Part shown: positions 16,625-55,227 of the stretch, one piece after another
How the letters are laid out: every line of letters starts with the position of its first letter
How positions within the stretch are numbered: the stretch's first letter is position 1
Source: an uncultured Gammaproteobacteria bacterium
Lineage (GTDB): Bacteria > Patescibacteriota > Microgenomatia > Daviesbacterales > UBA10151
Assembly: GCA_964387865.1 (NCBI GenBank)
Contig: CAYLXC010000004.1
Span: forward strand, 1-57,441
Direction: 5' to 3'
Length of the DNA: 57,441 bases
The notes under the pieces: model-generated
Database searches by the model: none
What the model saw: the letters and a program-made list of their open reading frames with translations, nothing else
Told to the model about the DNA's origin: nothing
Program-made: the position numbers and the translations under genes

Positions 16625-16695
16625 GTCAGCTTTCAGCTATCAGTCTACAGACAAATCAGAGAAGTCTGAAAGCTGAAGACTGTCGACTGAAAGCT
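16625..16695. repeat. inverted pair of heptamer arrays
   Basis: GTCAGCT TTCAGCT ATCAGTC TACAGAC ... GTCTGAA AGCTGAA GACTGTC GACTGAA between def and fmt. Confidence 0.85.
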
Positions 16696-17272
16696 ATATT
16701 GTCATCTCCTCAAAAATATCAGTTCCAGTTTTATCTTTACCTGTAAAGCGGTAAAATTTCCCTTTTTGTTCTAAAACTCTCTGGTTAAATAAAATTCCAT
16801 CCAAATGATCCACTTCATGCTGGAATATCCAGGCAGGAATGCCTTTTAGGGTTTTATTGAACTTATTCCCATTTATATCCTGATAGGAAACCTTTATTGA
16901 GGTATGCCTTTTTACATTGCCCCAAATATTGGGTATGGATAAACAGCCTTCAAAATAAGTTTTTTTGCCTTTTGAATAAGAGATAATTTCAGGATTTATG
17001 ATTGAAACAAATTCCTTTTTATAATCTTTCCATCTGGATGCACGTTGAGTTGGATTTGAGGGAGGTTTTTGTTTTGTATTATGAAGACGGGCCACAAAAA
17101 AGCGATCAGAAAGCCCAACCTGGGTGGCAGCCAATCCAACCCCTTCAGGATCTTTAAAACTTTTGGTAAGTTTTATCATCTGATTTAGAGTGTTTACTAA
17201 AGCTGGTGTAAACTTTTTTACAAATTTTGTTTTTACCCTTAAACTTGGGTCTGGTGCATGAATTACTTGCAT
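16694..17272 (-). CDS. def: peptide deformylase
   Basis: GVGLAATQVG, EGCLSIP, QHEVDHLDG. Confidence 0.97.
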   Translation of the reverse strand: MQVIHAPDPSLRVKTKFVKKFTPALVNTLNQMIKLTKSFKDPEGVGLAATQVGLSDRFFVARLHNTKQKPPSNPTQRASRWKDYKKEFVSIINPEIISYSKGKKTYFEGCLSIPNIWGNVKRHTSIKVSYQDINGNKFNKTLKGIPAWIFQHEVDHLDGILFNQRVLEQKGKFYRFTGKDKTGTDIFEEMTI

Positions 17273-17296
17273 GAGGGAATAATATCAAAGAAAAGG

Positions 17297-17351
17297 TATA
17301 AAGTAAAAAGTTTAAAGTAAAATTTTTTTTCTTTTTACTTTTGACTTTTAA
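17297..17351. repeat. inverted pair of A/T-rich heptamer arrays
   Basis: TATAAAG TAAAAAG TTTAAAG ... CTTTTTA CTTTTGA CTTTTAA. Confidence 0.6.
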
Positions 17352-17598
17352 ATTGTTTTAATCTCCACATGAAGACTTTGGCTTTGGATTTTGCTCCATA
17401 ATATCCTTTCGTAAAATTTAGAGCCTCTTCTAAAATTTTTCTGTCAACTTCTTTTGCTAATTTTATGTATAATCCATAGTGTTTTGTGTCATTTAAGGAT
17501 TCTGCCAGATATACGCCGTATTCTTGGAATTCATAAGCAATGTTTTTAGGACGGTCTTTGAATTTCGTTTCAGCAATGGCCCTCTTAATGGACTTCAT
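17335..17598 (-). CDS. small basic hypothetical protein
   Basis: 87 aa; 4-nt overlap with the upstream gene. Confidence 0.75.
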   Translation of the reverse strand: MKSIKRAIAETKFKDRPKNIAYEFQEYGVYLAESLNDTKHYGLYIKLAKEVDRKILEEALNFTKGYYGAKSKAKVFMWRLKQFKSQK

Positions 17599-19688
17599 GG
17601 TTTAGCTGACGTAGTTGCTTCCTCAAGCTTCTGTTTTGCTTCCAAATAGTCAGGTCTTAAATTTATAGCCTGCTTAAAAGCTTTAATTGCCTCATCTTTT
17701 TTATCCAAAGTCTCCAAAATTAGTGCCTTATTGTAATAGAGTTTTGGATCTGTAGGTGCAAGTTTTATCGCCTGATCCAAAGCTTTGAGTGTCTCATCAA
17801 CATATTTTTTATCCAAAGAAGAAAGTTCAAAATAAGTTCTTATGGCTGTTCTCCAAAAAGAGACATTATTTGGGCTCTGTTTTAAAACTGAATCCAAATG
17901 TTCTAAAGCTTCATCTTTCAAGACAGCTGATAAAGTTGCATCAATTTGTTCTAAAGCAGCAGATGCTGCAGCTGCTGAGTATGCAAGCTCACTTCTGTAG
18001 AATGGTTCATCTCTATTCAACTCCTTAGCAGCACTGAGCAGATTATATGCTTTTCCAGCGCTTCCTGCCTCAATAGCATTTTGCCCTTTTTTAAAAATAG
18101 TATCTGCATACCAAAGTTTGAAGATGGAAAATAGAAGATAGAGGGTTGTGAAGATAATAATACCTTTGGCAAATTTGGTGTAAAGAGGACGGCGGTAAAT
18201 AAGATGTAGTATGTAGTATGTAGTATGTAGTATGGATGGCAAAATTAGACCTTTGGTTTTAGGATTTGGATTAATTGTCAGCTTCAGCGGTTTAATGGAT
18301 TGAGTAAAAACAAAGGCCAAAGCTGGGAAAAGGTAAAAGAATATGGCAATTATGACTACAGAGAAAAGGAAGATATTATATATAAGGTAGGAGATATAAG
18401 AAGCAAGGAGAATGGGTATTAGGATATAAGGATATTGGGAAATATTTTTTCTCTTAATATCATAGTATCCTAGTATCGATTTTATGCTCCAAACTACAAA
18501 AGTTAAAATTACTATCATGTATGTGGTAAATCCTGCTAAACCAGTAGTAGCCAAATAGTTCAAATATTCATTGTGAGCTTTGTTATACAAAAAATCCCAC
18601 TCGGATGTTAAGTTATGGGCAGCGGGTCTAAATTGGTAATAAGAATAGGCAAAAGTTTCAACGCCTGATCCAAAAATAGGGTAATGTTTAAATATTTCCA
18701 AAGCTCCTTGCCAAACAATAAACCTGATTTGACCAGATTCTGTGCCACCTGTCTCAAGCTGGGTTCCTACTTGTTGTGTTAAAGAAATAACAGGTCTTGT
18801 AGGAGGAGAGAATTTGGAAATCAGTCTAAAACTGGTTAAAGCAGAACCAAAAAGAAGGTTAATTATAAGAAATGATCCAATAACGAGTAAAACTGGTTTT
18901 ACATTTCGATCCGCCAACTGACGAAGAGAAAATTCCTTTCGTTTGCGCTCGAAGAATAATAATAACCCTAGAAACACTGCCATTCCACAAATTAAACCCA
19001 ACGTAGGTCCCCTGGAATAAGTAAAGGTGAAAGCTAAGTAGTATGTAGTAAGTAGTATGTAGTAGGTAGTTAGGGATTTTCGGCTGGTGGCTGTGAGCAA
19101 AAAATAAAGAGCAGGAAAGATTAGCATGGAAAGGTATGCTGCAAGCCAATTAGGCTGGCCTAAGGTAGCAAATACTCTTTCCTGGACTCTTTGCACCCAG
19201 CAATCAGCATTAAATTCTCCTCTTAAAAACACACAGGATGGAGAAACTCCAAAATGCTCTGAAATTGCATAAAGGGAAATTATGAATCCTGATGCCAGCC
19301 CTACCTTTAGGAGTGTTAAAACCTTATCCTTATCCATGTTGGAAACAAAAGCCCAATATAATAATAGGTAGGTTACTGTGGATAAGAGTCCTCCGTTTAG
19401 TCTGGAATAATAACCCCAAATAGAAGTATGGGTATCAATTGAAAATATCGTAGATAAGATATTTGCGCCTAAAAAAAGTAATAACGGGATATCTAAAGGA
19501 GTCCGTTTAAATATGAATGTTTTCTCCTGGACCATTTTTAAAATCCAACATCCGACAATCAAAACAGTTATTCCATAAGCTAAATTCATCTTATTAAATT
19601 CAAAAAGTTCGTAATTTAAAGAAGTCCAAAAAAGAGGAGTTAGGAAAAAGAGAAGGTAGAAAGAATAGGTGATGACTTTATCCAGCAT
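17595..19688 (-). CDS. O-antigen ligase (Wzy_C)-like membrane protein with C-terminal TPRs
   Basis: ATLGQPNWLAAYL, TYSRG, RFIVWQGALEIFKHYPIFGSG, AHNEYLNYLATTG; C-terminal TPR-like helices. Confidence 0.85.
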   Translation of the reverse strand: MLDKVITYSFYLLFFLTPLFWTSLNYELFEFNKMNLAYGITVLIVGCWILKMVQEKTFIFKRTPLDIPLLLFLGANILSTIFSIDTHTSIWGYYSRLNGGLLSTVTYLLLYWAFVSNMDKDKVLTLLKVGLASGFIISLYAISEHFGVSPSCVFLRGEFNADCWVQRVQERVFATLGQPNWLAAYLSMLIFPALYFLLTATSRKSLTTYYILLTTYYLAFTFTYSRGPTLGLICGMAVFLGLLLFFERKRKEFSLRQLADRNVKPVLLVIGSFLIINLLFGSALTSFRLISKFSPPTRPVISLTQQVGTQLETGGTESGQIRFIVWQGALEIFKHYPIFGSGVETFAYSYYQFRPAAHNLTSEWDFLYNKAHNEYLNYLATTGLAGFTTYMIVILTFVVWSIKSILGYYDIKRKNISQYPYILIPILLASYISYLIYNIFLFSVVIIAIFFYLFPALAFVFTQSIKPLKLTINPNPKTKGLILPSILHTTYYILHLIYRRPLYTKFAKGIIIFTTLYLLFSIFKLWYADTIFKKGQNAIEAGSAGKAYNLLSAAKELNRDEPFYRSELAYSAAAASAALEQIDATLSAVLKDEALEHLDSVLKQSPNNVSFWRTAIRTYFELSSLDKKYVDETLKALDQAIKLAPTDPKLYYNKALILETLDKKDEAIKAFKQAINLRPDYLEAKQKLEEATTSAKP
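18204..18231. repeat. heptamer tandem array inside a CDS
   Basis: (ATGTAGT)x4, read as ILHTTYYILH. Confidence 0.9.
19036..19070. repeat. heptamer tandem array inside a CDS
   Basis: AAGTAGT ATGTAGT AAGTAGT ATGTAGT AGGTAGT, read as LTTYYILLTTYY. Confidence 0.9.
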
Positions 19689-19692
19689 AAAT

Positions 19693-19773
19693 TAGGGTAT
19701 AGCGACTAGGGTATAGGGTTTAGTAAAAAAAATCAACTATACCCTAACCCCTAGACCCTAAACCCTACCCTAT
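19693..19773. repeat. inverted pair of TAGGG/CCCTA heptamer arrays between divergent genes
   Basis: TAGGGTA TAGCGAC TAGGGTA TAGGGTT TAG ... CTATACCCTAACCCCTAGACCCTAAACCCTACCCTAT. Confidence 0.9.
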
Positions 19774-19788
19774 GTTAAACTGCCATTC

Positions 19789-20853
19789 ATGTTAGGTAAG
19801 ATTTGGCAGTATTTCTCTTATGATATAGGGATTGATCTAGGCACTGTTAATACTTTAGTTTTAGTGAAAGGCAAGGGAATTTTAATCCGGGAACCAACTG
19901 TTGTAGCACTACATAGAAAAACTAGACAAATTTTAGCAATTGGTGGAGAGGCAAAAAGAATGCTTGGCAGAACACCTGCTGCAATTGATGCAATTAGGCC
20001 ACTTCGTGATGGAGTAATTTCTGATTTTGATACAACTGAGGCCATGCTTAGATATTTTATTCATAAAGTTCATGACACACCATCTAAGGGTTTTTGGTCC
20101 ATTCCCAAAATTCCAAAACCTAGAATAGTTGTGGGAATACCATCAGGAGTAACTGAAGTTGAAAGAAGAGCTGTCCAGGATGCATGTCTTTCAGCAGGTG
20201 CAAGGGAGGCATTTTTAATTGAGGAACCTATGGCTGCAGCAATTGGTGCAAATCTTCCTGTTGAAGAACCGGAAGGGGTAATGGTTGTTGATGTGGGAGG
20301 TGGTACAACAGAAATTGCAGTAATTTCTTTGGGAGGAATGGTAATAAACAGATCCTTAAGGGTTGCAGGGGATGAGATGGATGAGGCAATCGTATCTTAT
20401 ATGAGGACAAGATATGGAATGTTAATTGGCGAGAGAACATCCGAGGAGGTAAAAATTGAAATTGGTTCTGCTTTTCCTTTGAATAATGATAATTCAGTTA
20501 TGACAGTTGTAAGAGGTAGAGATTTGGCATCTGGTTTACCAAAATCTTTAAAATTAGGAGCTGCGGAAATTAGGGAAGCATTAACCCCTGTTATTTCACA
20601 AATTATCTCATCCATTCAGGAAGTTTTAGAAGAGACTCCGCCTGAGCTTTTAACTGATGTTGTTGAAAGAGGAATATTTTTGGCAGGTGGCGGATCATTG
20701 CTTCGTGGATTAGACAAAAGGATTGCTGAGGAAACAAAAATGCCGGTATATTTAACAGATGATCCCCTAACAACAGTTGTAAGAGGATGTGGAGAAGTTT
20801 TAAACAATTTGGATCTGTTATCTAAAGTTAGAGTGACAGGAGGTTTACGTTAA
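19789..20853 (+). CDS. mreB: rod shape-determining actin MreB
   Basis: IGIDLGTVNT, IRPLRDGVISDF, IEEPMAAAIG, VDVGGGTTE, LAGGGSLL. Confidence 0.97.
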   Translation: MLGKIWQYFSYDIGIDLGTVNTLVLVKGKGILIREPTVVALHRKTRQILAIGGEAKRMLGRTPAAIDAIRPLRDGVISDFDTTEAMLRYFIHKVHDTPSKGFWSIPKIPKPRIVVGIPSGVTEVERRAVQDACLSAGAREAFLIEEPMAAAIGANLPVEEPEGVMVVDVGGGTTEIAVISLGGMVINRSLRVAGDEMDEAIVSYMRTRYGMLIGERTSEEVKIEIGSAFPLNNDNSVMTVVRGRDLASGLPKSLKLGAAEIREALTPVISQIISSIQEVLEETPPELLTDVVERGIFLAGGGSLLRGLDKRIAEETKMPVYLTDDPLTTVVRGCGEVLNNLDLLSKVRVTGGLR

Positions 20854-20860
20854 ACCGACT

Positions 20861-20895
20861 GTCATCCTGAGCGAGCGGAGCGAGTCGAAGGATCT
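20861..20895 (+). repeat. GTCAT-type REP-like element
   Basis: GTCATCCTGAGCGAGCGGAGCGAGTCGAAGGATCT; same family as 40838-40863. Confidence 0.75.
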
Positions 20896-20903
20896 ATATT
20901 AAT

Positions 20904-21044
20904 ATGAAAAAAACTGTCCTCTTTGATATTGACGGAACACTTTTAGATACTTATGGTTTTTTAGGCCATGAAATTAAAAAGTACAAGCCGGATTATGTGA
21001 TTGATAACATAGAACAGCTAACAAAAATCCTAAAGCTTGCTTGA
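20904..21044 (+). pseudogene. internally deleted HAD-family phosphatase
   Basis: 46 aa MKKTVLFDIDGTLLDT-YGFLGHEIKKYKPDYVIDNIEQLTKILKLA*: HAD motif I joined directly to a typical HAD C-terminus. Confidence 0.8.
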
Positions 21045-22193
21045 ATTGTAAAATCTGTACTTATAAACGAATAATGGATCCACCATGGCAATTGTGGCAA
21101 TTTGGACCATATCTGCCCCTGCCTTTAAGAATTTATCTACATCAGAAACTTCCACAATTCCACCCCCACCCAAAATCTCATATTTTAATCCCTCCTCTTT
21201 CCTGATTTGGTTTGCCCATTTAATAGACTCTAAAGCAATATCTTGAATAAGTTTTCCGCAAACTCCTGAAGTTTTCCTTCCAGGTAAAATTTCCTTACCA
21301 TCTTTTCCTAAAACAGTCATGGCAATTGCATTTATTCCTGAAACATAATCTAAATTTTTACCCGGTGCCTTAAAAACTTTTTTCATCTGATTTTTGTTTT
21401 TATAAAGGCCAAATTTAAATCCGGCTTTTGTATTTGGAAACCTTCTTTTAAATTCTGAAAAAAGGTATTTAACTAAATCCGCACTCTGAAACATCTCTCC
21501 TTCTTCAGGATTTTCCGTCACATTAGGACATGCTAAATTAAACTCTATAAATTGGGCTCCTGATGTTACTGCTGCTGTTGCTGCTATAAGCAGATCTTCT
21601 GCTGTTTCAACTATTAATGCCTCTGAAGGAGACTTTCCGAAAATAACAGAGCAGCCTTGGTTATCTCCCGGGGTTGTTGCTGTAACCGAACAACCTAAAA
21701 TCTGCCCATCCTTCACTGACTCCCTCTGTTTTCTTAGTTCCTGTGCCCAAACCTCTAATGACGGGGATGGATTTCCAAAAGAATTTGTAATGCTTTGGTA
21801 TTTATCAAATTCATTCTGATCATTGGTTGCAGTTAGAGGTTTATTAAGACTCTGTCTGCTAACTTGTTCTTCAGCCTGAATTATAGCTACATTCGGAACT
21901 TTATTAGAGGGTCTTGGGGTTGATCTTCTGGTTTTTTCCAAAACCATTCCATAGCCCATTTTTAGGTAAAAGTCTGTCCATATTTTTCTGGATGCAGGTC
22001 CTGCAGAAATAGCTATTGGAGAAATTAATTTATGGCCCAAAAAGGAATATTTTTTTTCTCTTGGAAGTGAGGGAAACTTATTGGATAACCAAACAGGGCC
22101 TTCCTGAACAACTTTTTCCCAAGATTTCTTAATATCATAAACAAATTTAGGCTGTTTAGGATGAATTAAATTTTTTGGATCTGATGGTTTCAT
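21030..22193 (-). CDS. pyrD: dihydroorotate dehydrogenase-like FMN enzyme (divergent)
   Basis: PIAISAGP, TNSFG, IEFNLACPN, INAI, TSGVCG, ILGGGGI, AGADMVQIAT; last gene of the pyr cluster. Confidence 0.75.
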   Translation of the reverse strand: MKPSDPKNLIHPKQPKFVYDIKKSWEKVVQEGPVWLSNKFPSLPREKKYSFLGHKLISPIAISAGPASRKIWTDFYLKMGYGMVLEKTRRSTPRPSNKVPNVAIIQAEEQVSRQSLNKPLTATNDQNEFDKYQSITNSFGNPSPSLEVWAQELRKQRESVKDGQILGCSVTATTPGDNQGCSVIFGKSPSEALIVETAEDLLIAATAAVTSGAQFIEFNLACPNVTENPEEGEMFQSADLVKYLFSEFKRRFPNTKAGFKFGLYKNKNQMKKVFKAPGKNLDYVSGINAIAMTVLGKDGKEILPGRKTSGVCGKLIQDIALESIKWANQIRKEEGLKYEILGGGGIVEVSDVDKFLKAGADMVQIATIAMVDPLFVYKYRFYNSSKL

Positions 22194-22662: not shown

Positions 22663-22669
22663 AAATCTA

Positions 22670-28412: not shown

Positions 28413-29501
28413 ATGATTAAAAATATACCTTATCTTTTAGCGCTGCATTCTATAGTTGGTTTGGGGCCGGTGAGGCTTAAGGTTTTAATTGAGCATTTTA
28501 AAGATCCAAAAATTGCTTGGGAGGCAATATCCAAGGAACTTTTAAAAATAGGAATACCCAAAAATGTTGTTGATCTTTTGGTGGAAACACGAAATAATAT
28601 GGATCCCCAGACTTATGCTAATGATATCAGGGACGTAGGTATTAAATGGATAACTATATACGAAGAATCCTATCCCAACCTCCTGAAGCAAATTTATGAC
28701 CCGCCTATTGTTTTATATTACAAAGGCGTATTTCCAGTTGCTGGTGAAAAAGCCATAGCAGTTGTTGGAACAAGAAAAATGACAGGTTATGGAAAAATTG
28801 TGACAGACCAATTTACAAGGGAATTGGTTAATGCAGGATTAACAATCGTTTCAGGACTTGCCCGTGGGGTTGATAGTCAAGCTCATCTGAGTGCCCTTGA
28901 AGCAAATGGTAGAACTATTGCTATTTTAGGCGGAGGTTTAAATCAAATTTACCCTCCGGAAAATAGAGGATTGGCAGATAAAATTATCGATGGTCATGGT
29001 GCAATAATTTCTGAATTTCCTCCAGATTATCCCTCGCTTCCAGGTAACTTTCCTGCAAGAAATAGGATTATTTCAGGTCTTTCTTTGGCTGTTTTAGTAA
29101 CAGAGGCAGCAGAGGATTCAGGTTCTTTAATTACTGCAAGAGCTGCTGTGGAACAAGGCCGTGAAGTTTTTGCGGTACCAGGGCCAATAACATCTAATTT
29201 ATCAAAAGGTCCAATAGATTTAATCAAGGAAGGGGCAAAGCCTGTAACTGAAGTAGAGGAAATATTGGAAGAACTGGGAATAAGTAAAGTTAAAAGTTCA
29301 AAGTTAAAAATTCAAAGTGAAATAGAAGTATCTGAAAGTGAGAAGAAGATTTTGGATTGTTTGGAAAATGAGAATAGACATATTGATGAAATCTGTAGAA
29401 ATTTGAATTTATCAGCATCTCTTGTTTCAGCCAATTTATTAAAAATGGAAATTGCCGGATTAGTTCAAAACTTGGGAAGCGGTAACTATTGCAAAACATG
29501 A
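28413..29501 (+). CDS. dprA: DNA-processing protein DprA
   Basis: IAVVGTR, IVSGLARGVD, FPARNRIISGLS, GSLITA, VFAVPG; C-terminal winged helix. Confidence 0.97.
   Translation: MIKNIPYLLALHSIVGLGPVRLKVLIEHFKDPKIAWEAISKELLKIGIPKNVVDLLVETRNNMDPQTYANDIRDVGIKWITIYEESYPNLLKQIYDPPIVLYYKGVFPVAGEKAIAVVGTRKMTGYGKIVTDQFTRELVNAGLTIVSGLARGVDSQAHLSALEANGRTIAILGGGLNQIYPPENRGLADKIIDGHGAIISEFPPDYPSLPGNFPARNRIISGLSLAVLVTEAAEDSGSLITARAAVEQGREVFAVPGPITSNLSKGPIDLIKEGAKPVTEVEEILEELGISKVKSSKLKIQSEIEVSESEKKILDCLENENRHIDEICRNLNLSASLVSANLLKMEIAGLVQNLGSGNYCKT
29286..29318. repeat. heptamer array in the dprA interdomain linker
   Basis: AAAGTTA AAAGTTC AAAGTTA AAAATTC AAAGT, read as KVKSSKLKIQS. Confidence 0.75.
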
Positions 29502-33234: not shown

Positions 33235-35325
33235 ATGAATAATTTAGTAATTGTTGAATCCCCTACAAAGGCAAGGACACTTGCACGTTTTTTGGGTAAT
33301 GGTTATAAAATTGAGGCCTCAATGGGCCATGTGAGAGATTTGCCAAGATCTGATTTTGGGGTGGATATTGAGAAAGATTTTGAACCCCAATATGTAATCC
33401 CGCGTGATAAAAAGAAAATGGTAAATCGGCTAAAAAAAGAGGCTGAAGGTGCTGATACTCTTTGGCTGGCAACAGATCCTGACAGGGAGGGTGAAGCAAT
33501 AGCATGGCATATCTCCCAGATTATCGGAAGTCGGAAATCAGAAGTCGGAAAATCCGAAATCCGAAATCCGAAATCCGAAATTAGGCGTGTTGTATTCCAT
33601 GAAATAACAGAGGAAGCAATCAAAGAGGCTTTTAAAAACCCCCGTGTTATTGATCTAAAACTTGTTGATGCACAGCAGGCAAGAAGAGTTTTGGATAGGC
33701 TGGTTGGATACAAATTATCTCCCTTACTTTGGCAAAAGATTAAAAAAGGTTTATCTGCAGGTCGGGTTCAATCAGTTGCTTTAAGATTAATTGTTGAGAG
33801 AGAAAAAGAAATAAAGGCTTTCAAGACAGAGGAATATTGGCTTATTGAGGCTGAATTAGAGTCAAGAGTCAACCGTCGAGAGTCAAGATTTTTGGCAACT
33901 TTAATTGAGCAAAATGGGAAAAAGCTGGAGATTAAAAATAAGAAAGAAGCTGATGGACATGTTAAAAACTTAGAAAAGGCAGATTACATTGTTTCAAAAG
34001 TAACGCAAAAGGAAGTTAGAAGATATCCGTATCCTCCGTTTACCACCTCAACTTTGCAGCAAGCAGGTGCCAATAGATTAGGAATGTCTGCAAAAAAAAC
34101 TATGATGCTTGCTCAAAACTTATATGAAAGAGGACTTATAACTTATATGAGAACAGATTCTTTTAATTTATCTCAAAGCGCAATTTTGGGAGTTAGAGCA
34201 TACATTGCAAATTTTATTGGAAAATCATATTTACCAAATGCGCCGAGAATTTTTAAATCAAAATCTAGAAATGTTCAGGAAGCTCATGAGGCAATACGGG
34301 TAACAGATGTCGGACGTCAGCAATCGGATATCAGACAAGATAATGGATTAAATAGAGACCATGTAAGATTATATGATCTTATTTGGAAAAGATTTGTGGC
34401 ATGTCAGATGAGCGAGGCGGTTTTGGATCAGACTACTATTGATGTCCAAGCTCACCTCCGAGGTGAAGCTACGGAGACTCCTGGATCACACCTCGGAGGT
34501 GTTGGCTATTTGCTCAGAGCCACAGGTTCTGTTATTAAATTTGATGGCTGGTTGAAACTGTATGGTAAAGATATAGAAGATGTAGGAGAAGAAAAAAAGC
34601 AAGCACTACCTTCTCTCTCAGAGAACCAACAACTAAACCTAATCCAACTTTTGCCTTCTCAGCATTTCACAGAACCTCCACCGCGGTACACCGAAGCAAC
34701 CTTAATTAAAAAACTTGAGGAATTGGGGATTGGCAGGCCTTCCACTTATGCCCCAATTCTTTCGACAATCCAGGAGAGATTTTACGTTGAAAAATTGGAG
34801 CGAAAATTTATCCCAACCAGTTTAGGCCTTGCTGTTACAGATTTTTTGGTCAAGTATTTTCCAAATATTATCGATTATACATTTACAGCCCAAATGGAGG
34901 ATGAGCTGGATGAAATTTCAAGAGGAGAAAGGGAGTGGAAACCAACAATAAGGGAATTTTATGAGCCATTTGAAAAAAAGTTAGCAGAAACTTCAGAGGT
35001 GGCACAAAAAGTAAAGATGGAGTTGGAAAAGGTAGATAAAAAATGTCCTGTTTGCGGAAGGGATTTGGTTATAAGAATTGGTAGATTTGGGAAGTTTTTA
35101 GCATGCAGTGGTTTTCCGGAGTGTAAGCATACGGAAAGTTTGGAGGAAAAAATAAATGCCAAATGCCCGCAAGATGGTGGGGAAATAGTAATCAGAAAAA
35201 CAAGAAGAGGAAAAACTTTTTACGGCTGCAAAAACTGGCCAGTCTGTAAATTTGCATCATGGACCAAGCCAAAAGCTGAAAAACCAGAACCCGTCATTGC
35301 GAGCCCCGAAGGGGCGAAGCAGTGA
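33235..35325 (+). CDS. topA: DNA topoisomerase I
   Basis: NLVIVESPTK, LATDPDREGE, SAGRVQS, LITYMRTD, GIGRPSTY; C-terminal Zn ribbons; start ATG 33235. Confidence 0.98.
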   Translation: MNNLVIVESPTKARTLARFLGNGYKIEASMGHVRDLPRSDFGVDIEKDFEPQYVIPRDKKKMVNRLKKEAEGADTLWLATDPDREGEAIAWHISQIIGSRKSEVGKSEIRNPKSEIRRVVFHEITEEAIKEAFKNPRVIDLKLVDAQQARRVLDRLVGYKLSPLLWQKIKKGLSAGRVQSVALRLIVEREKEIKAFKTEEYWLIEAELESRVNRRESRFLATLIEQNGKKLEIKNKKEADGHVKNLEKADYIVSKVTQKEVRRYPYPPFTTSTLQQAGANRLGMSAKKTMMLAQNLYERGLITYMRTDSFNLSQSAILGVRAYIANFIGKSYLPNAPRIFKSKSRNVQEAHEAIRVTDVGRQQSDIRQDNGLNRDHVRLYDLIWKRFVACQMSEAVLDQTTIDVQAHLRGEATETPGSHLGGVGYLLRATGSVIKFDGWLKLYGKDIEDVGEEKKQALPSLSENQQLNLIQLLPSQHFTEPPPRYTEATLIKKLEELGIGRPSTYAPILSTIQERFYVEKLERKFIPTSLGLAVTDFLVKYFPNIIDYTFTAQMEDELDEISRGEREWKPTIREFYEPFEKKLAETSEVAQKVKMELEKVDKKCPVCGRDLVIRIGRFGKFLACSGFPECKHTESLEEKINAKCPQDGGEIVIRKTRRGKTFYGCKNWPVCKFASWTKPKAEKPEPVIASPEGAKQ
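33524..33582. repeat. inverted heptamer arrays inserted in frame in topA
   Basis: TCGGAAG TCGGAAA TCAGAAG TCGGAAA then (ATCCGAA)x4; read as GSRKSEVGKSEIRNPKSEI. Confidence 0.92.
33859..33888. repeat. heptamer array in topA
   Basis: GAGTCAA GAGTCAA CCGTCGA GAGTCAA, read as ESRVNRRESR. Confidence 0.75.
34308..34336. repeat. degenerate heptamer array in topA
   Basis: TGTCGGA CGTCAGC AATCGGA TATCAGA, read as VGRQQSDIR. Confidence 0.6.
34453..34501. repeat. 13-bp inverted repeat element inserted in frame in topA
   Basis: CACCTCCGAGGTG (34453-34465) and its exact reverse complement CACCTCGGAGGTG (34489-34501); read as HLRGEATETPGSHLGGV. Confidence 0.9.
35293..35323 (+). repeat. GTCAT-type REP-like element forming the topA C-terminus
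   Basis: GTCATTGCGAGCCCCGAAGGGGCGAAGCAGT, read as VIASPEGAKQ*. Confidence 0.75.
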
Positions 35326-35340
35326 CGCTCTTTTTTACCT

Positions 35341-35368
35341 TAATACATACTACTTGATACTTACTACT
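35341..35368. repeat. intergenic heptamer array
   Basis: TAATACA TACTACT TGATACT TACTACT; same motif family as the arrays in the ligase-like gene. Confidence 0.8.
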
Positions 35369-42984: not shown

Positions 42985-43005
42985 TTTAGCACGACAAGGA
43001 ATATT

Positions 43006-49746: not shown

Positions 49747-49932
49747 ATGTTCTTATTTCAATTTAAACCGTATCAACTTCGGATATTTTCTTCCTGGTTT
49801 ATTAATCTTTCTGCGGGCTGGTTTGCTTCCATATTCTTTTTGTTATCTCAGCCATGGTTACTTATACTAAGCATCCTGCTGTCTATTATTTGTTTGTATA
49901 CCTCTGTTATAATAGAAAAGAAATTAAGATAA
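49747..49932 (+). CDS. small hypothetical membrane protein
   Basis: YQLRIFSSWFINLSAGWF plus a second TM; start moved to ATG 49747 to avoid overlap with proS. Confidence 0.5.
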   Translation: MFLFQFKPYQLRIFSSWFINLSAGWFASIFFLLSQPWLLILSILLSIICLYTSVIIEKKLR

Positions 49933-49934
49933 AT

Positions 49935-50075
49935 ATGAGAATTACTGATATTGATTTAACAAATACTACAGCTATTGCGCAGTTAACAACTGTTTTATTA
50001 ATAATTGCTTTTTTATTGGCTTTTATTGCTTATAACCGTACTGATAAAAATCTAAAATCCCGTAAAAAGGTGTGA
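49935..50075 (+). CDS. very small single-TM protein
   Basis: MRITDIDLTNTTAIAQLTTVLLIIAFLLAFIAYNRTDKNLKSRKKV*. Confidence 0.45.
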   Translation: MRITDIDLTNTTAIAQLTTVLLIIAFLLAFIAYNRTDKNLKSRKKV

Positions 50076-50112
50076 TTGATTTTAGGAACATTCTCTGTTA
50101 AACTATGGGGTT

Positions 50113-50955
50113 ATGGTAGAAGGCAATGGATGGGAAAGATTAAGTGAAGTTGCTCCATCAGATCAATTTGTTTGTACGTATGGTGGTCAATTTGCCCAAA
50201 CTTTAGAAATAAACAGACCACTTGTAGAAAGATTTTTATCAATTTCTGCTTTAGATGGTAGAGTTTTACTTCAAGAAAGCAAGGTTAGGAGACCTCGAGC
50301 CATACCGGATGGAGTAAATCCTGATGGATCTGTTGCTGGTAGAGGGGGTTTAAGGTGGGGTGAAAAGTTAGAAACTGATGAAAAGAGAGAAATAAATCCT
50401 AATTGCCAGATAGAACCAGATGAGAATGGATGGGTTATTTCTATTAATGGTGGATTGATTGCAGATGATTTAAGAGAAAAAGGTGGCTTAACAGTAAGAG
50501 AAATGAATCGAAAAGGAGCAAATAGGTTTAATGGTTATCTGGCCGACAGTTTTAGCAAAACTCTTTTAAAAGATAAGTTGACTTTCGCCAAGGACCCATT
50601 TTTTACCGGACGATTATTAGTATCTTCGATTAGTTTAGTTGCCGTAACAAATAATGTATGGGCTAAGGATTGGGGTTCACTAATAAATGGATTGCTTTTT
50701 TACGAACTTCTCGTATTTTATACTAATATATTTAGAAAATCATTTTTTGATGAGCATTTGAGTAATGAAAAAAGGTTTAGGGCTAAAAATTATGATGCAT
50801 CGTTTATGAAAATAATTAATTTTCATAGAAGAACCGTGAGGAGTTTTGCTGAAGGATTTGATACCCCTTTTGAAATTGACAGACTTATCGGAGCTCTAGG
50901 ATATTTGGAATGGAATAGATTAACGAGAAATAGATTAGTTAGAGCAGCCAGCTAA
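50113..50955 (+). CDS. hypothetical protein with two C-terminal hydrophobic segments
   Basis: 280 aa ORF, no family recognised. Confidence 0.65.
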   Translation: MVEGNGWERLSEVAPSDQFVCTYGGQFAQTLEINRPLVERFLSISALDGRVLLQESKVRRPRAIPDGVNPDGSVAGRGGLRWGEKLETDEKREINPNCQIEPDENGWVISINGGLIADDLREKGGLTVREMNRKGANRFNGYLADSFSKTLLKDKLTFAKDPFFTGRLLVSSISLVAVTNNVWAKDWGSLINGLLFYELLVFYTNIFRKSFFDEHLSNEKRFRAKNYDASFMKIINFHRRTVRSFAEGFDTPFEIDRLIGALGYLEWNRLTRNRLVRAAS

Positions 50956-50995
50956 TTGATTTTAACCAGGAATTCTGTTACATTAACAAGCTAGC

Positions 50996-52171
50996 ATGAT
51001 AAGTAAAAATATCCTTAAACAACCTAAATCTATAGTTGAAGTTACAGTTACTGTACCTTGGACAGATTTGGAAAATACCTGGAACACGACTCTTCAGAAA
51101 ATGGCTTCTGATGTAGAACTACCTGGATTTAGAAAAGGTGCAGCTCCCCTTCCCATGGTTGAACAAAACCTTGGGATAAAACTTCAAGATGAGGTTCTAA
51201 AAGTATCCATGCCTAATTTTTTAATAGAGGCATTAAAGGGCACTGATATTGTCCCTATAGATTATCCGAAATATGACTTAATTTCTTTTGTTAAAGGACA
51301 ACAGCTTCAATTTAAAGCAACTATTACAAACAGGCCTGCCGTGACAGTAGGCAATTATAAAACTATAAAAGCAACAAGACCTCTATTAAAAAGTGTTACA
51401 GATGAGGAAGTAAATAAGGTTATTGATGATTTATATAAAAGGTGGAAAGTAAGAAATCCTGTAACACAATCTTCAGTCAACAGCTCGCTTCGCGAAGCGA
51501 GTCCACAGTCAACAGACAAAACAGGTGGTCAAGGTGGATCCATAAGTTTCCAGGGTGGTCCTTCGACCCGTTCGGATGCCTCAGGGCAAGCTGGCTCAGG
51601 ATCTTCGGGACAACAGCAACAAACAGTCCCAACTAATGGGCAAGCTGAAGGTCCCAATGATACTTTTGCCAAAGCCATGGGAGCCATTTCCCTTTCTGAT
51701 TTAAAAGAAAAGGTAAGAAAAGATCTGGAAGCAAATGTTAAATATAATAATGAATTGGATTATGAAGAAGCAATCTTGCAAGAGGTTGAAAAAATTACAA
51801 CTGTTGAACTCCCTGATATTTTAATCCAGGATGAATTAAATAGGATGTTGGTTTCTTTACAAAGAAGAGTGGCTGACATGGGACTACTTTTGGAAGATTA
51901 CTTGAAAGGACAGGGTAAAACTTTGGATCAGCTGAAAAATGAATGGAGAACTCAGGCAGAAAAAAATGTAAGAATGGAACTGGGGCTTGCAGAGATTGCA
52001 AGGCAGGAGAATGTGGCAATTTCAGATGCAGAACTTCAAGCAGAGGTGGACAAAATTCAAGACGGGAAGGTTAAAAAACAATTTGAGGCACAAGAACCAA
52101 GGTTACATCTAAGGCATGCATTAAGACAAACTAGAACATTAGACCTATTAAAAAAGATGGTAGGAGGGTAG
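50996..52171 (+). CDS. tig: trigger factor lacking the FKBP/PPIase domain
   Basis: Ribosome-binding PGFRKGAAP; C-terminal helical domain (LPDILIQDEL); the middle is a G/S/Q/T linker containing repeats. Confidence 0.9.
   Translation: MISKNILKQPKSIVEVTVTVPWTDLENTWNTTLQKMASDVELPGFRKGAAPLPMVEQNLGIKLQDEVLKVSMPNFLIEALKGTDIVPIDYPKYDLISFVKGQQLQFKATITNRPAVTVGNYKTIKATRPLLKSVTDEEVNKVIDDLYKRWKVRNPVTQSSVNSSLREASPQSTDKTGGQGGSISFQGGPSTRSDASGQAGSGSSGQQQQTVPTNGQAEGPNDTFAKAMGAISLSDLKEKVRKDLEANVKYNNELDYEEAILQEVEKITTVELPDILIQDELNRMLVSLQRRVADMGLLLEDYLKGQGKTLDQLKNEWRTQAEKNVRMELGLAEIARQENVAISDAELQAEVDKIQDGKVKKQFEAQEPRLHLRHALRQTRTLDLLKKMVGG
51474..51517. repeat. composite CAGTCAA heptamer + 18-bp palindrome element in tig
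   Basis: CAGTCAA CAG CTCGCTTCG|CGAAGCGAG TCCA CAGTCAA CAGAC; 30 nt identical to 54722-54751. Confidence 0.95.
51560..51603. repeat. degenerate REP-like element in tig
   Basis: CCTTCGAC...CTCAGGGCAAG...GCTCAGGATC; reverse-complement relative of the GTCATCCTGAGC..GTCGAAGG family. Confidence 0.6.
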
Positions 52172-52172
52172 G

Positions 52173-52502
52173 ATGGATTGTATCTTCTGTAAGATTGTTA
52201 ACAAAGAGATTCCAAAAGAGTTTGACTACGAATCCAAGAGCTTAGTGGTTTTTCCTGATATTAATCCATCAGCAGATATTCATCTTTTGATTGTGCCAAA
52301 AAAGCACATTAATGGAATGAAAGAGATCGGGGAGGAACATTCTAATTTACTGGCAGAAGTTTACAGAGTGGTGAGTAAGCTGGTTGAGGAAAATAATTTA
52401 CAGGATGATCTTTATAGGGTTGTTGTAAATGGAGGAAGAGCTCAACATGTGCCCCATTTACATTTTCATCTTTTAGGTGGACAATGGAAAAAGATGGTTT
52501 AA
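52173..52502 (+). CDS. HIT-family nucleotide hydrolase
   Basis: MDCIFCKI, HLLIVPKKH, QHVPHLHFHLLGG. Confidence 0.95.
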   Translation: MDCIFCKIVNKEIPKEFDYESKSLVVFPDINPSADIHLLIVPKKHINGMKEIGEEHSNLLAEVYRVVSKLVEENNLQDDLYRVVVNGGRAQHVPHLHFHLLGGQWKKMV

Positions 52503-52525
52503 AAGGAGGTGTTTTTTAATTCAAA

Positions 52526-52723
52526 ATGTCAATAATAGTTAAAGCTAATCCTGGAGATTCTACAGATTCTGTTATCAGAAAATTTCAAAAAAAAGTTGTT
52601 GCTGAAGGTTTGGTTCAAGAAATTAGGGACAGGTATGTTTATAAAAAACCTTCACAACGCCGTCAGGAATATTTGGCAGAGAAAAGACGGAAAATAATGA
52701 GAGCCAGAAGGTATGGTGGATGA
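52526..52723 (+). CDS. rpsU: 30S ribosomal protein S21
   Basis: DSVIRKFQKKV...EIRDRYVYKKPSQRR; in the hit-rpsU-yqeY context. Confidence 0.88.
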   Translation: MSIIVKANPGDSTDSVIRKFQKKVVAEGLVQEIRDRYVYKKPSQRRQEYLAEKRRKIMRARRYGG

Positions 52724-53177
52724 AAAGATGTTGCTTGAGAGACTACAAGAAGATTTAAAGCAGGCACAACTTGCAAAAGATGAAGTAAAGATTTCTACTT
52801 TAAGGCTTCTAATCTCTGAAATACATAATGGTGAAATCCAAAAAGGTGGCACTTTAGAAGACCGGGAAATAATTTCAGTTGTGCAACGGGAGGCTAAAAA
52901 AAGAAAAGAAGCCGCGGCAGGCTTTAGGCAGGGTCAAAGAGAAGAACAAGCTCAAAAAGAAGAAGCAGAACTTAAAATATTGGAAAGTTACTTGCCATCT
53001 CAGCTTTCAAATGAGGAATTGACTAAAATAGTTGAAGATACTATAAATGAATTAGGGGCCAATTCTTTGCAAGATATGGGTAAGGTTATGGGTACAGTTA
53101 TGGGGAAGGTTAAAGGACAGACAGATGGAGAAGTGGTAAGTGGGATTGTTAGAGAGAAACTAACTACAAATTTATGA
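52713..53177 (+). CDS. yqeY: GatB/YqeY domain protein
   Basis: LRLLISEI, EAKKRKEA, YLPSQLS, DMGKVMG. Confidence 0.92.
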   Translation: MVDEKMLLERLQEDLKQAQLAKDEVKISTLRLLISEIHNGEIQKGGTLEDREIISVVQREAKKRKEAAAGFRQGQREEQAQKEEAELKILESYLPSQLSNEELTKIVEDTINELGANSLQDMGKVMGTVMGKVKGQTDGEVVSGIVREKLTTNL

Positions 53178-53584
53178 TAAATATCATTGTTTCATCTGAT
53201 CCAAGATATCAAATCAATAAAACGGCAATAAGATCGGCAGTCTTTATGGCTTTACAAAAGCATCGTATTGGGGGAAAAGTTGAGCTTGGCATAAATATTA
53301 TTGGCGATCGAAAAATGCATGAGCTCAATAAAAAATACAGAGGAATTGATTCAACAACAGATATCTTATCTTTTGCACTCGAGGATCCAAATCCCGCAAG
53401 CTTACAACATATCCCAAGAATCGGTTTTATTTCAGCTCCTGATAGGTGGTTAAGACTTGGGGATATTGTAATTTCCTATCCGCAAGCTTTAGAAGATGCT
53501 GCTTTGGATGGAATATCCGTTGATGAGGAAATTAGAGATTTGGTTGAACATGGTGTGAATCACCTATTAGGAATCCATCACTAA
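53174..53584 (+). CDS. ybeY: rRNA maturation endoribonuclease YbeY
   Basis: LNKKYRGID..TDILSF, LGDIVIS, HGVNHLLGIHH. Confidence 0.92.
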   Translation: MINIIVSSDPRYQINKTAIRSAVFMALQKHRIGGKVELGINIIGDRKMHELNKKYRGIDSTTDILSFALEDPNPASLQHIPRIGFISAPDRWLRLGDIVISYPQALEDAALDGISVDEEIRDLVEHGVNHLLGIHH

Positions 53585-55227
53585 TGACTGCTTATTATTT
53601 AAAGTATAGGCCTCAAAGTTTGGAGGAGCTGATCGGTCAAGAGCCGGTCAAAAAAATCCTGCTTTCAGCTTTTCAAGAAAATAGATTATCTCATGCTTAT
53701 CTTTTTGTCGGACCAAGAGGGACAGGTAAGACCTCAACAGCAAGGATTTTAGCAAAGATGGTTAATTGCGAAATCGTAAATCGTAAATCGTTAATCGTTA
53801 ATCGTGAAAACAAAAACGATAATCGATATCCGATAACCGATATACCGTGTAATAAATGCTCCACATGTTTGTCAATCACTGATGGATCAAACCTTGATCT
53901 TATTGAAATTGATGCTGCATCCAATAGGGGAATTGAAGATATCCGCGCCCTTCGTGAGAAAATAAAGCTTGCACCAACTAATGCAAAAAAGAAAGTTTAC
54001 ATAATTGATGAGGTGCATATGTTAACCACAGAGGCTTTTAACGCTCTTTTAAAGACTTTGGAAGAACCTCCGGCGCATGCTCTATTTGTTTTGGCAACAA
54101 CAGATGTTAATAAGGTTCCTCAAACAATTCTTTCAAGGGTACAAAGGTTAGATTTCAAGTTTGCAAGAGCTTCCGAGTTGATGGAAGCCTTAATAAAAAT
54201 TGCAAGAGAGGAAAAAATTGATATTGATGAAGAAGCGCTTAAATTACTGATTAGAAAATCAGAAGGATCATTTCGGGATGGTGTTAAACTTTTGGATCAA
54301 GTCTCATCAATTGAAGGTAAAATTACTAAAGAAACTTTGGAGAAGAGTCTAAAGTCATCTAATTTTGATGACATTTCCGATTTAATAAAATATTTTTCCA
54401 AAAAAGACACAAAAGAGGGTTTATCCATAGTATTGGAAATGGTGGAGAATGGAGCAGATATTAAAGAAACAGTATTATCTTTGATGGACGTACTAAGAAA
54501 TTTGGTATTTATAAAAAATGAGTTGGGAGAACAATTGGTAAAACCTCAAATGGTTGAGGAAAAATATGTAGAACTTATGGCACTATCAGAAACTTTCTCT
54601 AATCATGATTTGGTTAGAATCTTGGAAATCTTACAAAAGGTTAATGAGAAATTTAGATTTGCATCAATTCCGTCACTACCATTAGAGTTGGCTGTGGTTG
54701 AAATTTGTGGGGAACAGTCAACAGTCAACAGCTCGCTTCGCGAAGCGAGTCTACAGTCTACCATAAATTCGGAAAAATCACAGGACAAGATAAAATCAGA
54801 TAAATTAGAAGATGAGAAGCTTGTCTCGGGCGAATCTCTACTAAGCGCAGTCGAAGGGCCACATCCCACATCAAATTCTGACATAGTTATACTTAAGGAA
54901 AAATGGACTTTTGTTTTGGAAACTGTCCGTCCCTTAAATTTTTCTTTGGAAGCACTTTTAAGATCAATTAACTTGACAGAGTGTACGGATACAACAGTAA
55001 TCCTGGAAGTTCCATATTCTTTTCATCAAAGAATTTTGGAAGCCCCCAAAAATAGGGATTTATTAGAGTCAATTCTTTCCGATATTTTAGGAAGAAGCAT
55101 TAGGGTTTCAACTGTTTTGGGAAATAGGCCAACAAGAAAAGAAGATATTGCAAATGTTGAAGTTGCACAAGATGATGAAATAATCCGTGTAGCCGCAGAA
55201 ATCTTTAACTCAGACTCCATAAATTAA
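53584..55227 (+). CDS. dnaX: DNA polymerase III subunit gamma/tau
   Basis: KYRPQ, GPRGTGKTS, EIDAASNRG, IIDEVHML, AFNALLKTLEEP. Confidence 0.97.
   Translation: MTAYYLKYRPQSLEELIGQEPVKKILLSAFQENRLSHAYLFVGPRGTGKTSTARILAKMVNCEIVNRKSLIVNRENKNDNRYPITDIPCNKCSTCLSITDGSNLDLIEIDAASNRGIEDIRALREKIKLAPTNAKKKVYIIDEVHMLTTEAFNALLKTLEEPPAHALFVLATTDVNKVPQTILSRVQRLDFKFARASELMEALIKIAREEKIDIDEEALKLLIRKSEGSFRDGVKLLDQVSSIEGKITKETLEKSLKSSNFDDISDLIKYFSKKDTKEGLSIVLEMVENGADIKETVLSLMDVLRNLVFIKNELGEQLVKPQMVEEKYVELMALSETFSNHDLVRILEILQKVNEKFRFASIPSLPLELAVVEICGEQSTVNSSLREASLQSTINSEKSQDKIKSDKLEDEKLVSGESLLSAVEGPHPTSNSDIVILKEKWTFVLETVRPLNFSLEALLRSINLTECTDTTVILEVPYSFHQRILEAPKNRDLLESILSDILGRSIRVSTVLGNRPTRKEDIANVEVAQDDEIIRVAAEIFNSDSIN
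53772..53843. repeat. inverted heptamer arrays inserted in frame in the DnaX zinc module
   Basis: AATCGTA x2, AATCGTT x2, AATCGTG; 9-nt spacer; ACGATAA TCGATAT CCGATAA CCGATAT. Confidence 0.93.
54715..54761. repeat. composite CAGTCAA heptamer + 18-bp palindrome element in dnaX
   Basis: CAGTCAA CAGTCAA CAG CTCGCTTCGCGAAGCGAG TCTA CAGTCTAC. Confidence 0.95.

Follow-up and report, generated by a model that had tools for sequence, protein, structure and literature searches.

Introduction

Tandem heptamer repeats have been noted in bacteria for decades, for example as the short tandemly repeated repetitive (STRR) sequences of cyanobacteria, and they constitute the commonest class of long simple sequence repeats (SSRs) in prokaryotes. 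We know of no accepted explanation for their period, their preference for four units or their spread. The present analysis concerns period-7 arrays in a stretch of 57,441 nt (referred to below as the window), which is contig C4 of the 0.95-Mb, 42-contig, 94%-complete assembly GCA_964387865.1 (G000). Its host belongs to Candidatus Daviesbacteria, within the Microgenomates and the Candidate Phyla Radiation (CPR; names as used by the database sources). We consider it likely that these arrays are relatives, lacking an open reading frame (ORF), of cassettes of the intervening sequence (IVS) type that carry a PF05635 gene, being either derivatives of such cassettes or binding sites. In this clade the gene and the arrays go together, as is apparent from (i) the bracketing of the gene by arrays, (ii) the tracking of array words by protein clade and (iii) the near-absence of arrays where the gene is missing.

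In the IVS of Coxiella burnetii, tandem GACAGAT heptamers precede the ATG of an ORF encoding S23p, within a 28-bp stem that is cut by RNase III; the copy number of GACAGAT differs between Coxiella strains, and the S23p protein of Xanthomonas is a homopentamer (PMC4990558). PF05635 ORFs have also been found in rRNA insertions of CPR bacteria, where they were called uncharacterised (PMC11270868). The family resembles Avd (PMC10053308), a positively charged pentameric barrel in which all five protomers contact an RNA stem-loop, with bases flipped out into crevices between the protomers (10.1101/2023.10.23.563531). Dispersed heptamers have been described separately, as GGGNATC repeats with a four-unit preference in Xanthomonas and Nostoc (Rehm et al. 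2015, PMC4692102) and as TAACTGA repeats in Beggiatoaceae (MacGregor 2015, PMC4679880), in neither case with a published mechanism.

The literature searched contained no paper reporting heptamer arrays in CPR bacteria or tying dispersed arrays to PF05635 genes. What is new here is that a CPR lineage carries IVS-like elements and heptamer repeats at sites other than rRNA, some of them translated within essential genes. A class of bacterial repeats that has long lacked an explanation thus gains a candidate partner gene, and the puzzle becomes testable at the bench. Below, IVP denotes a PF05635 protein (S23p, 23S rRNA IVS protein, Avd-like), and G, L and C numbers denote genomes of the class, loci in these genomes and contigs of G000, respectively.

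Heptamer arrays in the window

In the part of the window from 17.3 to 54.8 kb, Tandem Repeats Finder (TRF) listed 16 arrays of period 7, compared to about 2 expected by chance (scaled from 36–40 per 954 kb in shuffled genomes). An earlier note on this DNA, made from its sequence, had reported about 13, as well as five inverted pairs, all of which exist (16622–16696, 17287–17349, 19693–19767, 33523–33581 in topA and 53771–53843 in dnaX); the first of these is degenerate and was read by eye. Pfam analysis identified the host genes as topA, dnaX, dprA, a gene for a Wzy_C/TPR membrane protein, mreB, def and pyrG. The arrays are the following:

16622–16696, minus strand: inverted pair of degenerate period 7, TCAGCTx x4 / loop AAATCAGAGAA / AGCTGAA-type x4 (read from the sequence)
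17287–17349, minus strand: inverted pair AAAGTAAAAAGT... / TTTTTAC x3.6, between the Wzy_C/TPR gene and def; left array of AAAGTAA type, inverted score 15 (TRF)
18204–18234, minus strand: solo ATGTAGT x4.4, copies 100% identical, in the Wzy_C/TPR gene (TRF)
19038–19070, minus strand: solo GTAGTAT x4.7, in the Wzy_C/TPR gene just upstream of the Wzy_C domain (TRF, Pfam)
19693–19767, no strand assigned: inverted pair TAGGGTA x4.4 / A-rich loop / CCCTAAA x4.4, between the divergent Wzy_C/TPR and mreB genes (TRF)
29286–29322, plus strand: solo AAAGTTA x5.3, translated in the dprA linker (TRF, Pfam)
33523–33581, plus strand: abutting inverted pair TCGGAAR x4 / ATCCGAA x4, in frame in topA (sequence, Pfam)
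33858–33888, plus strand: solo GAGTCAA x4.4, translated in a second variable topA loop (TRF, alignment)
35339–35368, plus strand: solo degenerate CTTAATA CATACTA CTTGATA CTTACTA, beginning 14 nt past the topA stop (TRF)
53771–53843, plus strand: inverted pair AAATCGT x5 / loop GAAAACAAAAA / CGATAWY x4, translated in dnaX (sequence, Pfam)
54713–54762, plus strand: direct CAGTCWA-type array split by the 18-nt GC-rich palindrome CTCGCTTCGCGAAGCGAG (54732–54749), in the dnaX linker

The pair at 16622–16696 occupies the entire gap between the def stop codon (16694–16696) and the start codon (16618–16620) of the minus-strand gene that follows. Folds much more stable than those of dinucleotide shuffles were obtained for three of the five pairs: this one (RNA fold of −31.5 kcal/mol, z = −4.19; none of 200 shuffles equally good), the pair at 19693–19767 (−33 kcal/mol, z = −5.46) and the topA pair (z = −4.43). 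The ladder of 5-bp helices separated by 2x2 loops that the earlier note had proposed is exact in topA alone, whereas the dnaX ladder consists of 4-bp helices and 3x3 loops (z = −1.85) and the remaining pairs are mixed.

The ORFs of topA, dnaX, dprA and the Wzy_C gene remain open through the arrays, with intact Pfam domains on either side. The topA pair is translated in a variable loop that ends the Toprim domain, the dnaX pair in a loop between the VNCE and PCNKC motifs, and the dprA array in the linker separating the DprA domain (aa 73–279) from the winged-helix domain (aa 302–354). The array at 18204–18234 sits between the Wzy_C domain and the TPR repeats of its host gene (17595–19688, minus strand), and its unit family (canonical form ACATACT) was found at four strong-array loci of the genome. 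Reduced CPR genomes evidently tolerate approx. 10–25 extra repeat-encoded residues in topoisomerase I, a clamp-loader subunit and DprA, and such segments matter for the annotation and modelling of CPR proteins. Arrays located in essential genes are unlikely to act as on/off switches of the kind formed by phase-variable SSRs.

Period, length and pairing of arrays in the genome

Arrays were sought throughout the 0.95-Mb genome as (i) exact lag-matching runs of at least 2.5 copies, (ii) by a strict mismatch-tolerant score and (iii) by a relaxed score. Markov-3 simulations served as the null, and shuffled genomes, composition-preserving shuffles and, for folds, dinucleotide shuffles as further controls. 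Exact lag-7 runs numbered 57, compared to 3–7 in simulations; period 8 gave none, and periods 4–5 fell below simulation. The strict score yielded 40 arrays of period 7 and eight of period 14 (alternating heptamers), compared to 0–2 for periods 4–6, 8–13 and 15, and none in simulations. With the relaxed score, 102 period-7 arrays were detected (5–7 simulated). The predicted excess of period 7 over periods 5, 6 and 8 therefore extends to the whole genome, where 7 is the only strongly enriched tandem period and periods 5, 6, 8 and 10 are at chance.

One alternative account of such arrays takes them to be ordinary long SSRs that replication slippage produced because the replisome has an intrinsic bias towards 7 nt; they would be neutral in loops and spacers, and IVP cassettes would share their mutational environment or hitchhike in genomes permissive of repeats. 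A replisome bias of this kind was proposed by Mrazek et al. (2007), as relayed in PMC4679880, and in many prokaryotes long SSRs are indeed most often heptamers (PMC4679880); the placement of arrays in permissive loops, linkers and gene junctions also fits. We nevertheless regard slippage as an unlikely explanation, on the strength of several features of the arrays. Their lengths, instead of being geometric, peak sharply at 30–32 nt (approx. 4.4 units), compared to 17–20 nt for chance matches. For 33 of the 50 strong arrays the unit recurs exactly (in any rotation, on either strand) at another locus, compared to 6.4 in composition-preserving shuffles; recurrent families include ACCCTAT/TAGGGTA, AAATCAT/TGATTTA, ACATACT/GTAGTAT, AAAAAGT, AACAAGT, AAACGAT and AAAGGGG. 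Finally, a quarter of the arrays have complementary partners, in fixed arm order: a reverse-complementary partner within 70 nt was found for 27 of the 102 arrays at a score of at least 10 (2–8 in four controls) and for 19 at a score of at least 12 (0–4 in controls), so that complementarity of facing arrays, as noted earlier for the window, exceeds chance.

Variation within arrays falls mainly in two of the seven columns (87%, compared to 70% expected; p<0.001), and exactly five columns are invariant in 17 of 26 arrays. The earlier description of a unit as a 5-nt core plus two further bases was thus roughly right, although a strictly contiguous core is not the rule. G-quadruplex formation does not account for the four-unit preference of the AT-rich units: G-tracts occur only in the TAGGG family, and ATCGTAA, GATTTAT, AAGTAAC, GTAGTAT and others have none, yet comprise 4–5 units alike.

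Arrays lie within 30 nt of a gene boundary twice as often as expected (30 of 102, compared to 14.9). This enrichment would also fit a second explanation, namely that the hairpins are regulatory or processing signals beneficial to the host (RNase III sites, stability or termination elements, translational coupling, or binding arrays for proteins of the cold-shock type), and that IVP genes are passengers inserted into existing hairpin loops. The explanation is also in keeping with junction hairpins that exactly fill stop-to-start gaps, with the high stability of three window hairpins, with an RNase III gene in all 17 genomes sampled (see below) and with the binding of heptamer repeats by CspB, one protein per heptamer (PMC4679880). 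Against it, approx. 70% of the arrays lie inside ORFs (according to a crude ORF map); some of these are in loops of essential enzymes, in which a processing site would do harm. Together with the evidence from relatives presented below, this makes the explanation, in our judgement, distinctly improbable.

PF05635 genes are bracketed by inverted arrays

Pfam analysis revealed four PF05635 genes in the genome (three at E = 1e-36 to 1e-39). Inverted tandem arrays enclose each of the four; their period is 7 at three of the genes and 9 at the remaining one. The cassettes, together with an empty comparison site in the window, are:

First IVP cassette: arms TAGGGAT/CTATACC
Second IVP cassette: arms TGATTTA/TCTTAAA
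Third IVP cassette: arms ATGAnnA/TCATAAA
C10:4050–4540: fourth, divergent PF05635 gene (186 aa) with period-9 inverted arms TCTGGGAGA.../TTTCCCTAA...
Window 42985–43005, plus strand: empty comparison site, the 21-nt thyA-folA junction with a Shine-Dalgarno sequence

The arrays of the window carry no PF05635 ORF and therefore qualify only as ORF-less relatives of these cassettes. The two commonest ORF-less unit families of the genome (ACCCTAT and AAATCAT) match arms of its own IVP cassettes. The pair at 19693–19767 shares unit type and arm order with cassette C16:20344–20847 (IVP gene at C16:20371–20736), and its 5′ arm matches an arm of the L001 cassette with a score of 18, the order being identical. 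When ORF-less pairs were compared with cassette arms in both sequence and arm order, 16 agreed and 4 were mirror images.

A survey of 33 IVP loci from 31 genomes, in which a wider-window test was used, showed inverted-complementary flanks at 25 of the 33 genes, compared to 3 of 33 in a distant control, and 28 of the 34 flank arrays detected had period 7. Duplex folding in a fixed window, a method that misses arms lying farther out or within the ORF end, gave z < −2 in 12 of 32 cases. The 5′ array typically reaches the ATG of the IVP gene, and the 3′ array begins at or overlaps its stop codon; tandem heptamers directly precede the start codon, as in the Coxiella IVS, for example in L002, L071, L073, L077, L087, L092 and L096.

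The cassettes do not lie in helix 25 or 45 of 23S rRNA, and are found beside protein-coding genes (upstream of a murC-like gene, next to a secreted-protein gene and, in G006, between thyA and folA). The thyA-folA junction, 21 nt long in the window, is filled in G006 by a 455-nt cassette, the left arm of which begins 3 nt past the thyA stop and the right arm of which ends at the folA ATG. The ORF-less hairpin at 16622–16696 fills its stop-to-start gap in the same manner. Similarly, the downstream boundary of topA holds a complete IVP cassette in G019 and a solo array (35339–35368) in the window.

In a tree of IVP proteins, the arm word follows the protein clade across families f1, f2, f5 and f6: clades with support of 99/96, 100/98 and 99/94 carry CCCTA-type, TCATAAA-type and AAGAATT-type arms, respectively. 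A passenger moving among unrelated host hairpins would break this tracking, which argues against the view of the hairpins as host signals. The same result, together with the recurrence of 33 of the 50 units described above, does not bear out the claim of the earlier note that the element is sequence-agnostic. Its further idea, that of a dedicated factor, fares better to the extent that a partner gene family exists.

To our knowledge, PF05635 is a large family to which no function has been assigned outside diversity-generating retroelements (DGRs). The IVP proteins of the cassettes are basic (pI 9.3–9.7; approx. 120 aa). An alignment-based structure model is a four-helix bundle (pLDDT 94.8) that matches 2GSC (TM 0.86), 2RLD, Avd in the DGR ribonucleoprotein 8UB7 (TM 0.82) and 4DWL.

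Two further observations concern the cassettes. Period-9 arrays, like those at the divergent fourth gene, are also in excess in the genome (25, compared to 3–7 simulated). At C16:20740–20860, the right IVP arm (CTATTCC CTATACC CTATACC CTAAACC) lies within the signal-peptide region of the divergent neighbour (MKKFFLPILLLFIFVFLFPIPYTLNPI...), and one array is therefore cassette arm and coding sequence simultaneously.

Co-occurrence of arrays and IVP genes in the class

PF05635 was found in 144 of 201 genomes of the class, in up to 20 copies. Array density was examined in 17 of them (this genome, and 50–200 kb from each of 16 others). IVP copy number correlated with the density of arrays located more than 400 nt from any IVP gene (Spearman rho 0.87, p = 5e-6; like the other co-occurrence statistics, computed without correction for kinship). 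Strong period-7 arrays at this distance numbered 96 per 2122 kb in IVP-positive genomes and 3 per 1048 kb in IVP-negative ones, and the five contrasts drawn within families, of which two were within a genus, all agreed. A pattern search of the 201 genomes revealed four TAGGG cores at 7-nt spacing in 28, all of them IVP-positive (base rate 144/201; Fisher p = 4e-5 for TAGGGNN x4), which represent 26 genera and 12 families. In one genome (G102), 50 TAGGGNN x4 arrays, mainly on its contig C3, are strongly strand-biased (41 forward, 9 reverse), which points to a preferred orientation with respect to replication or transcription.

These distributions also bear on the two explanations introduced above. 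Some related genomes, even sisters within one genus (G056 compared to G021; G041 compared to G153), are entirely free of arrays. This would be unexpected of host signals, and also of slippage, given the presumably similar replication machinery of such sisters. The two genomes with arrays and no IVP gene, and the failure to find IVP genes without arrays in any of the 17, speak for host signals into which IVP genes insert. The slippage account gains some support from mismatch repair, since only two of the 17 genomes encode full-length MutS (G010 and G024), and neither has arrays. Loss of MutS may contribute, but it was rejected as a sufficient cause because four array-free genomes likewise lack MutS. 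The correlation of other small mobile genes with array density (see below) is a further point for slippage.

Orthologous sites in relatives

The best match to the dnaX gene of the window among 5.8 billion proteins is 71% identical, and no close relative was found; the closest topA among the relatives compared is 78% identical. The alignment of topA and dnaX orthologues, for which the earlier note had called, showed that array-free orthologues have loops shorter by approx. 10–22 aa and that other relatives carry different units at the same sites.

At topA site 1 the loop is short in relatives that have no array, and many others hold a different array: AAGTAAC x4 (G014), ACTCAAA x4 (G018), AACTCCN x4 (G009), the inverted pair GGTTCAT/ATGAACT (G002) and, in G022 of another family (L030), the period-8 inverted pair AACCAAAC/GGTTCATC. 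A check for a possible local origin of these units, from ancestral sequence in the flank, found TCGGAAG once beside the G014 site, which is at most suggestive. At dnaX site 1, this genome, G018 and G014 share an inverted pair around a similar A-rich loop, with differing units: AATCGTA here, and AGTTGGT/CTACAAA and GAGTCTA/CTAGACT in G018 and G014. Period and inverted geometry are thus kept while the unit sequence varies, as had been noted between loci of the window and as is now seen at orthologous sites too. These comparisons of sequence suggest that arrays occupy tolerant surface loops, where they recur or persist, and that words turn over fast with period and complementarity preserved.

Period-8 arrays play the same roles in some relatives, in topA (L030, G022), in dnaX (L051, G012) and as IVP arms (L087, G026). 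The period is therefore not universally 7 in the class.

At topA site 2, GAGTCAA is replaced in G014 by GAATCAA x4, a concerted one-base change throughout the array. This change between genera and the turnover of units at orthologous sites are what homogenisation by slippage would produce, and slippage may indeed drive the homogenisation of units. Arguing against slippage as the source of the arrays, a change by one unit in topA or dnaX shifts the reading frame, and high slippage rates would be lethal there. The rapid turnover of both units and positions between genera likewise does not fit a signal maintained for the benefit of the host.

Proposed mechanism and points against it

In the proposed scheme, the arrays belong to one family of small elements, the full form of which is a PF05635 gene of approx. 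120 codons between two mutually complementary arms, each of about 4–5 tandem heptamers. The window holds ORF-less forms only. Hairpins (arm, short loop, arm) occur where genes meet and, read in frame, within surface loops of topA and dnaX that tolerate them, and the solo arrays in linkers and gene ends would be single arms. By homology with Avd, an IVP pentamer may bind the ladder hairpin, either as RNA or as single-stranded DNA, with every heptamer presenting one protomer interface with paired bases and one or two unpaired ones. If one heptamer is read per interface, a 7-nt period and a length of 4–5 units would follow. If the Coxiella 23S IVS is a guide, RNase III would cleave cassette transcripts in the stem formed by the arms; such cutting would explain why cassettes can sit exactly between cistrons. 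New copies might arise by transposition-like insertion of pre-formed arms, or by protein-promoted local expansion and quasi-palindrome copying.

A stronger version of this scheme is plausible, although we would not yet call it probable: PF05635 pentamers would be dedicated, unit-specific readers of heptamer arrays, with approx. one protomer interface per unit, and the gene with its arms would be self-propagating, seeding ORF-less hairpins and solo arrays across a genome, coding regions of essential genes included. If this is true, it would jointly explain the widespread prokaryotic excess of heptamers, the four-unit preference and the function of a large orphan protein family, and the system would have been gained and lost genome by genome in this CPR class.

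Several observations weigh against a derivation of the arrays from IVP cassettes. Arrays could instead be landing pads for IVP genes. Two IVP-negative genomes keep a few arrays (G043, 2 per 100 kb; G088, 1 in 51 kb), and several unit families of the present genome have no arm-matched IVP gene in the 94%-complete assembly. Units are shared between genomes only modestly above chance (9, compared to 3.7; p about 0.02); recurring within the genome and little between genomes, they form a small vocabulary peculiar to each genome. The IVP correlation, computed without correction for kinship, is partly shared with the copy numbers of genes resembling REP-associated tyrosine transposases (RAYT, where REP stands for repetitive extragenic palindromic; rho 0.57) and of GIY-YIG genes (rho 0.52), so that part of it may reflect general repeat load. 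Two of the five window hairpins, both AU-rich, are thermodynamically marginal (17283–17352, z = −1.1; dnaX, z = −1.9), and the two variable columns of the units are not preferentially adjacent. The cassettes encode no enzyme for DNA mobility, no target-site duplication was seen at them, and we know of no nuclease or recombinase activity of PF05635. Finally, the Coxiella S23p is perhaps not even translated, according to Warrier et al. (PMC4990558).

Other candidate genes

The earlier note had suggested a structure-defined element and named four-helix-bundle, RAYT and GIY-YIG genes as possible partners. Of these, the four-helix-bundle family PF05635 proved to be linked to the arrays: a period-7 array lies within 150 nt of three of the four IVP genes, compared to none of eight RAYT-like genes, none of eight small GIY-YIG genes and 6.5% of random windows. 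The RAYT-like Y1 (HUH) genes are:

C26:7609–8301, RAYT-like Y1 gene
C1:34270–34896, RAYT-like Y1 gene
C14:18169–18837, RAYT-like Y1 gene
C8:18205–18879, RAYT-like Y1 gene
C5:45099–45752, RAYT-like Y1 gene
C36:2218–2865, RAYT-like Y1 gene
C1:3500–4147, RAYT-like Y1 gene
C27:709–1092, RAYT-like Y1 gene

They encode proteins of approx. 215–230 aa, and each has a short GC-rich palindrome of its own on both sides (e.g. CACCCCAGGGGTG, CAACCTTCCAGGTTG and CAAACCGGGTTTGG). The eight stand-alone small GIY-YIG genes (approx. 80–105 aa) include one at 9035–9340 of the window (minus strand). In favour of a sequence-agnostic element made or mobilised by an enzyme of either type are the presence of both gene sets and their weak correlation with array density. 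The location of the genes speaks clearly against it, since none of the 16 has a period-7 array within 400 nt and each RAYT-like gene is flanked by its own palindrome. In addition, G153 has arrays and no RAYT-like genes, G041 and G024 have GIY-YIG genes and no arrays, and the units are not arbitrary. This reading, which is largely refuted here, is in our opinion highly improbable, and both gene types were rejected as heptamer partners.

The REP/RAYT-type system is a second repeat system, parallel to the heptamer arrays. The RAYT-like genes probably serve the palindrome family seen in the dnaX linker, separate from the heptamers. The array at 54713–54762, which is not an inverted pair, is a composite of array and palindrome that recurs at C14:24470–24515, there beside a CTGTAGA array. 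A second GC-rich palindrome in coding sequence, GAGCCCCGAAGGGGCGAAGC, is located at 35296–35322, at the 3′ end of topA.

Reverse transcriptase (RT) was ruled out as a generator of the arrays. The three RT genes of the genome belong to ordinary DGRs located outside the window:

C29:7144–9729, DGR (RT of 312–341 aa, as in the other two)
C7:5457–8042, DGR
C12:25357–27788, DGR

Next to each RT is an imperfect direct repeat of 79–119 nt (78–85% identity) with one of its copies at the 3′ end of an adjacent gene (template and variable repeats). None of the DGRs adjoins an IVP cassette; moreover, five array-rich genomes have no RT, and two array-free genomes have one.

Comparison with known systems

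The earlier note had compared the arrays with STRR sequences and with Rickettsia palindromic elements (RPEs), which is a fair analogy, although the arrays are members of neither group. RPEs are families of 100–150 bp with a conserved consensus and no tandem-heptamer architecture. Like them, the window arrays include hairpin repeats inserted in frame in housekeeping genes and read through as extra surface peptide. The elements described here are shorter (30–75 nt) and form no conserved 100–150-bp family; their loops vary in length and sequence, and only the period, the complementarity of the arms and the unit family are kept.

With REP/REPIN-RAYT systems the arrays share short dispersed hairpins and a cognate gene of the single-copy type flanked by the same repeats. 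The heptamer-flanked gene, however, encodes a non-enzymatic four-helix bundle, and heptamers flank none of the eight Y1 genes.

The resemblance to heptanucleotide SSRs (STRR, GGGNATC and TAACTGA) comprises the strict 7-nt period, dispersal on both strands, a length of about four units and enrichment at gene ends. The present arrays differ in their CPR host, in comprising many AT-rich families instead of one word, mostly without G-quadruplex potential, in their location inside ORFs in approx. 70% of cases (crude map) and in the link to PF05635 shown here. Most units lack the four G-tracts per array that characterize the GGGNATC repeats. As dispersed tandem heptanucleotides the arrays agree with cyanobacterial STRR sequences, whereas the heterocystous host and the STRR1–3 consensus units are replaced here by a CPR host and by other, mostly AT-rich words.

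The IVP is a basic four-helix bundle homologous to the Avd of the bRT-Avd ribonucleoprotein of DGRs (8UB7; TM 0.82), and the binding of a stem-loop with flipped bases by Avd may, by analogy, extend to it. No RT is needed here, since five array-rich genomes are without one.

The nearest described system is the 23S rRNA IVS with its S23p ORF (Coxiella burnetii, Leptospira; Warrier et al. 2016, PMC4990558), which is regarded as selfish. It shares with the present cassettes the protein family, the complementary terminal arms and the heptamers before the start codon inside a stem, and the host has an RNase III gene, by which the stem may be cleaved here as well. The cassettes of this clade differ in that (i) they lie between protein-coding genes, filling the stop-to-start gap, instead of in rRNA helices, (ii) both arms are full arrays of 4–5 units and (iii) they are accompanied by approx. 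100 ORF-less arrays and hairpins, many of them translated in essential genes.

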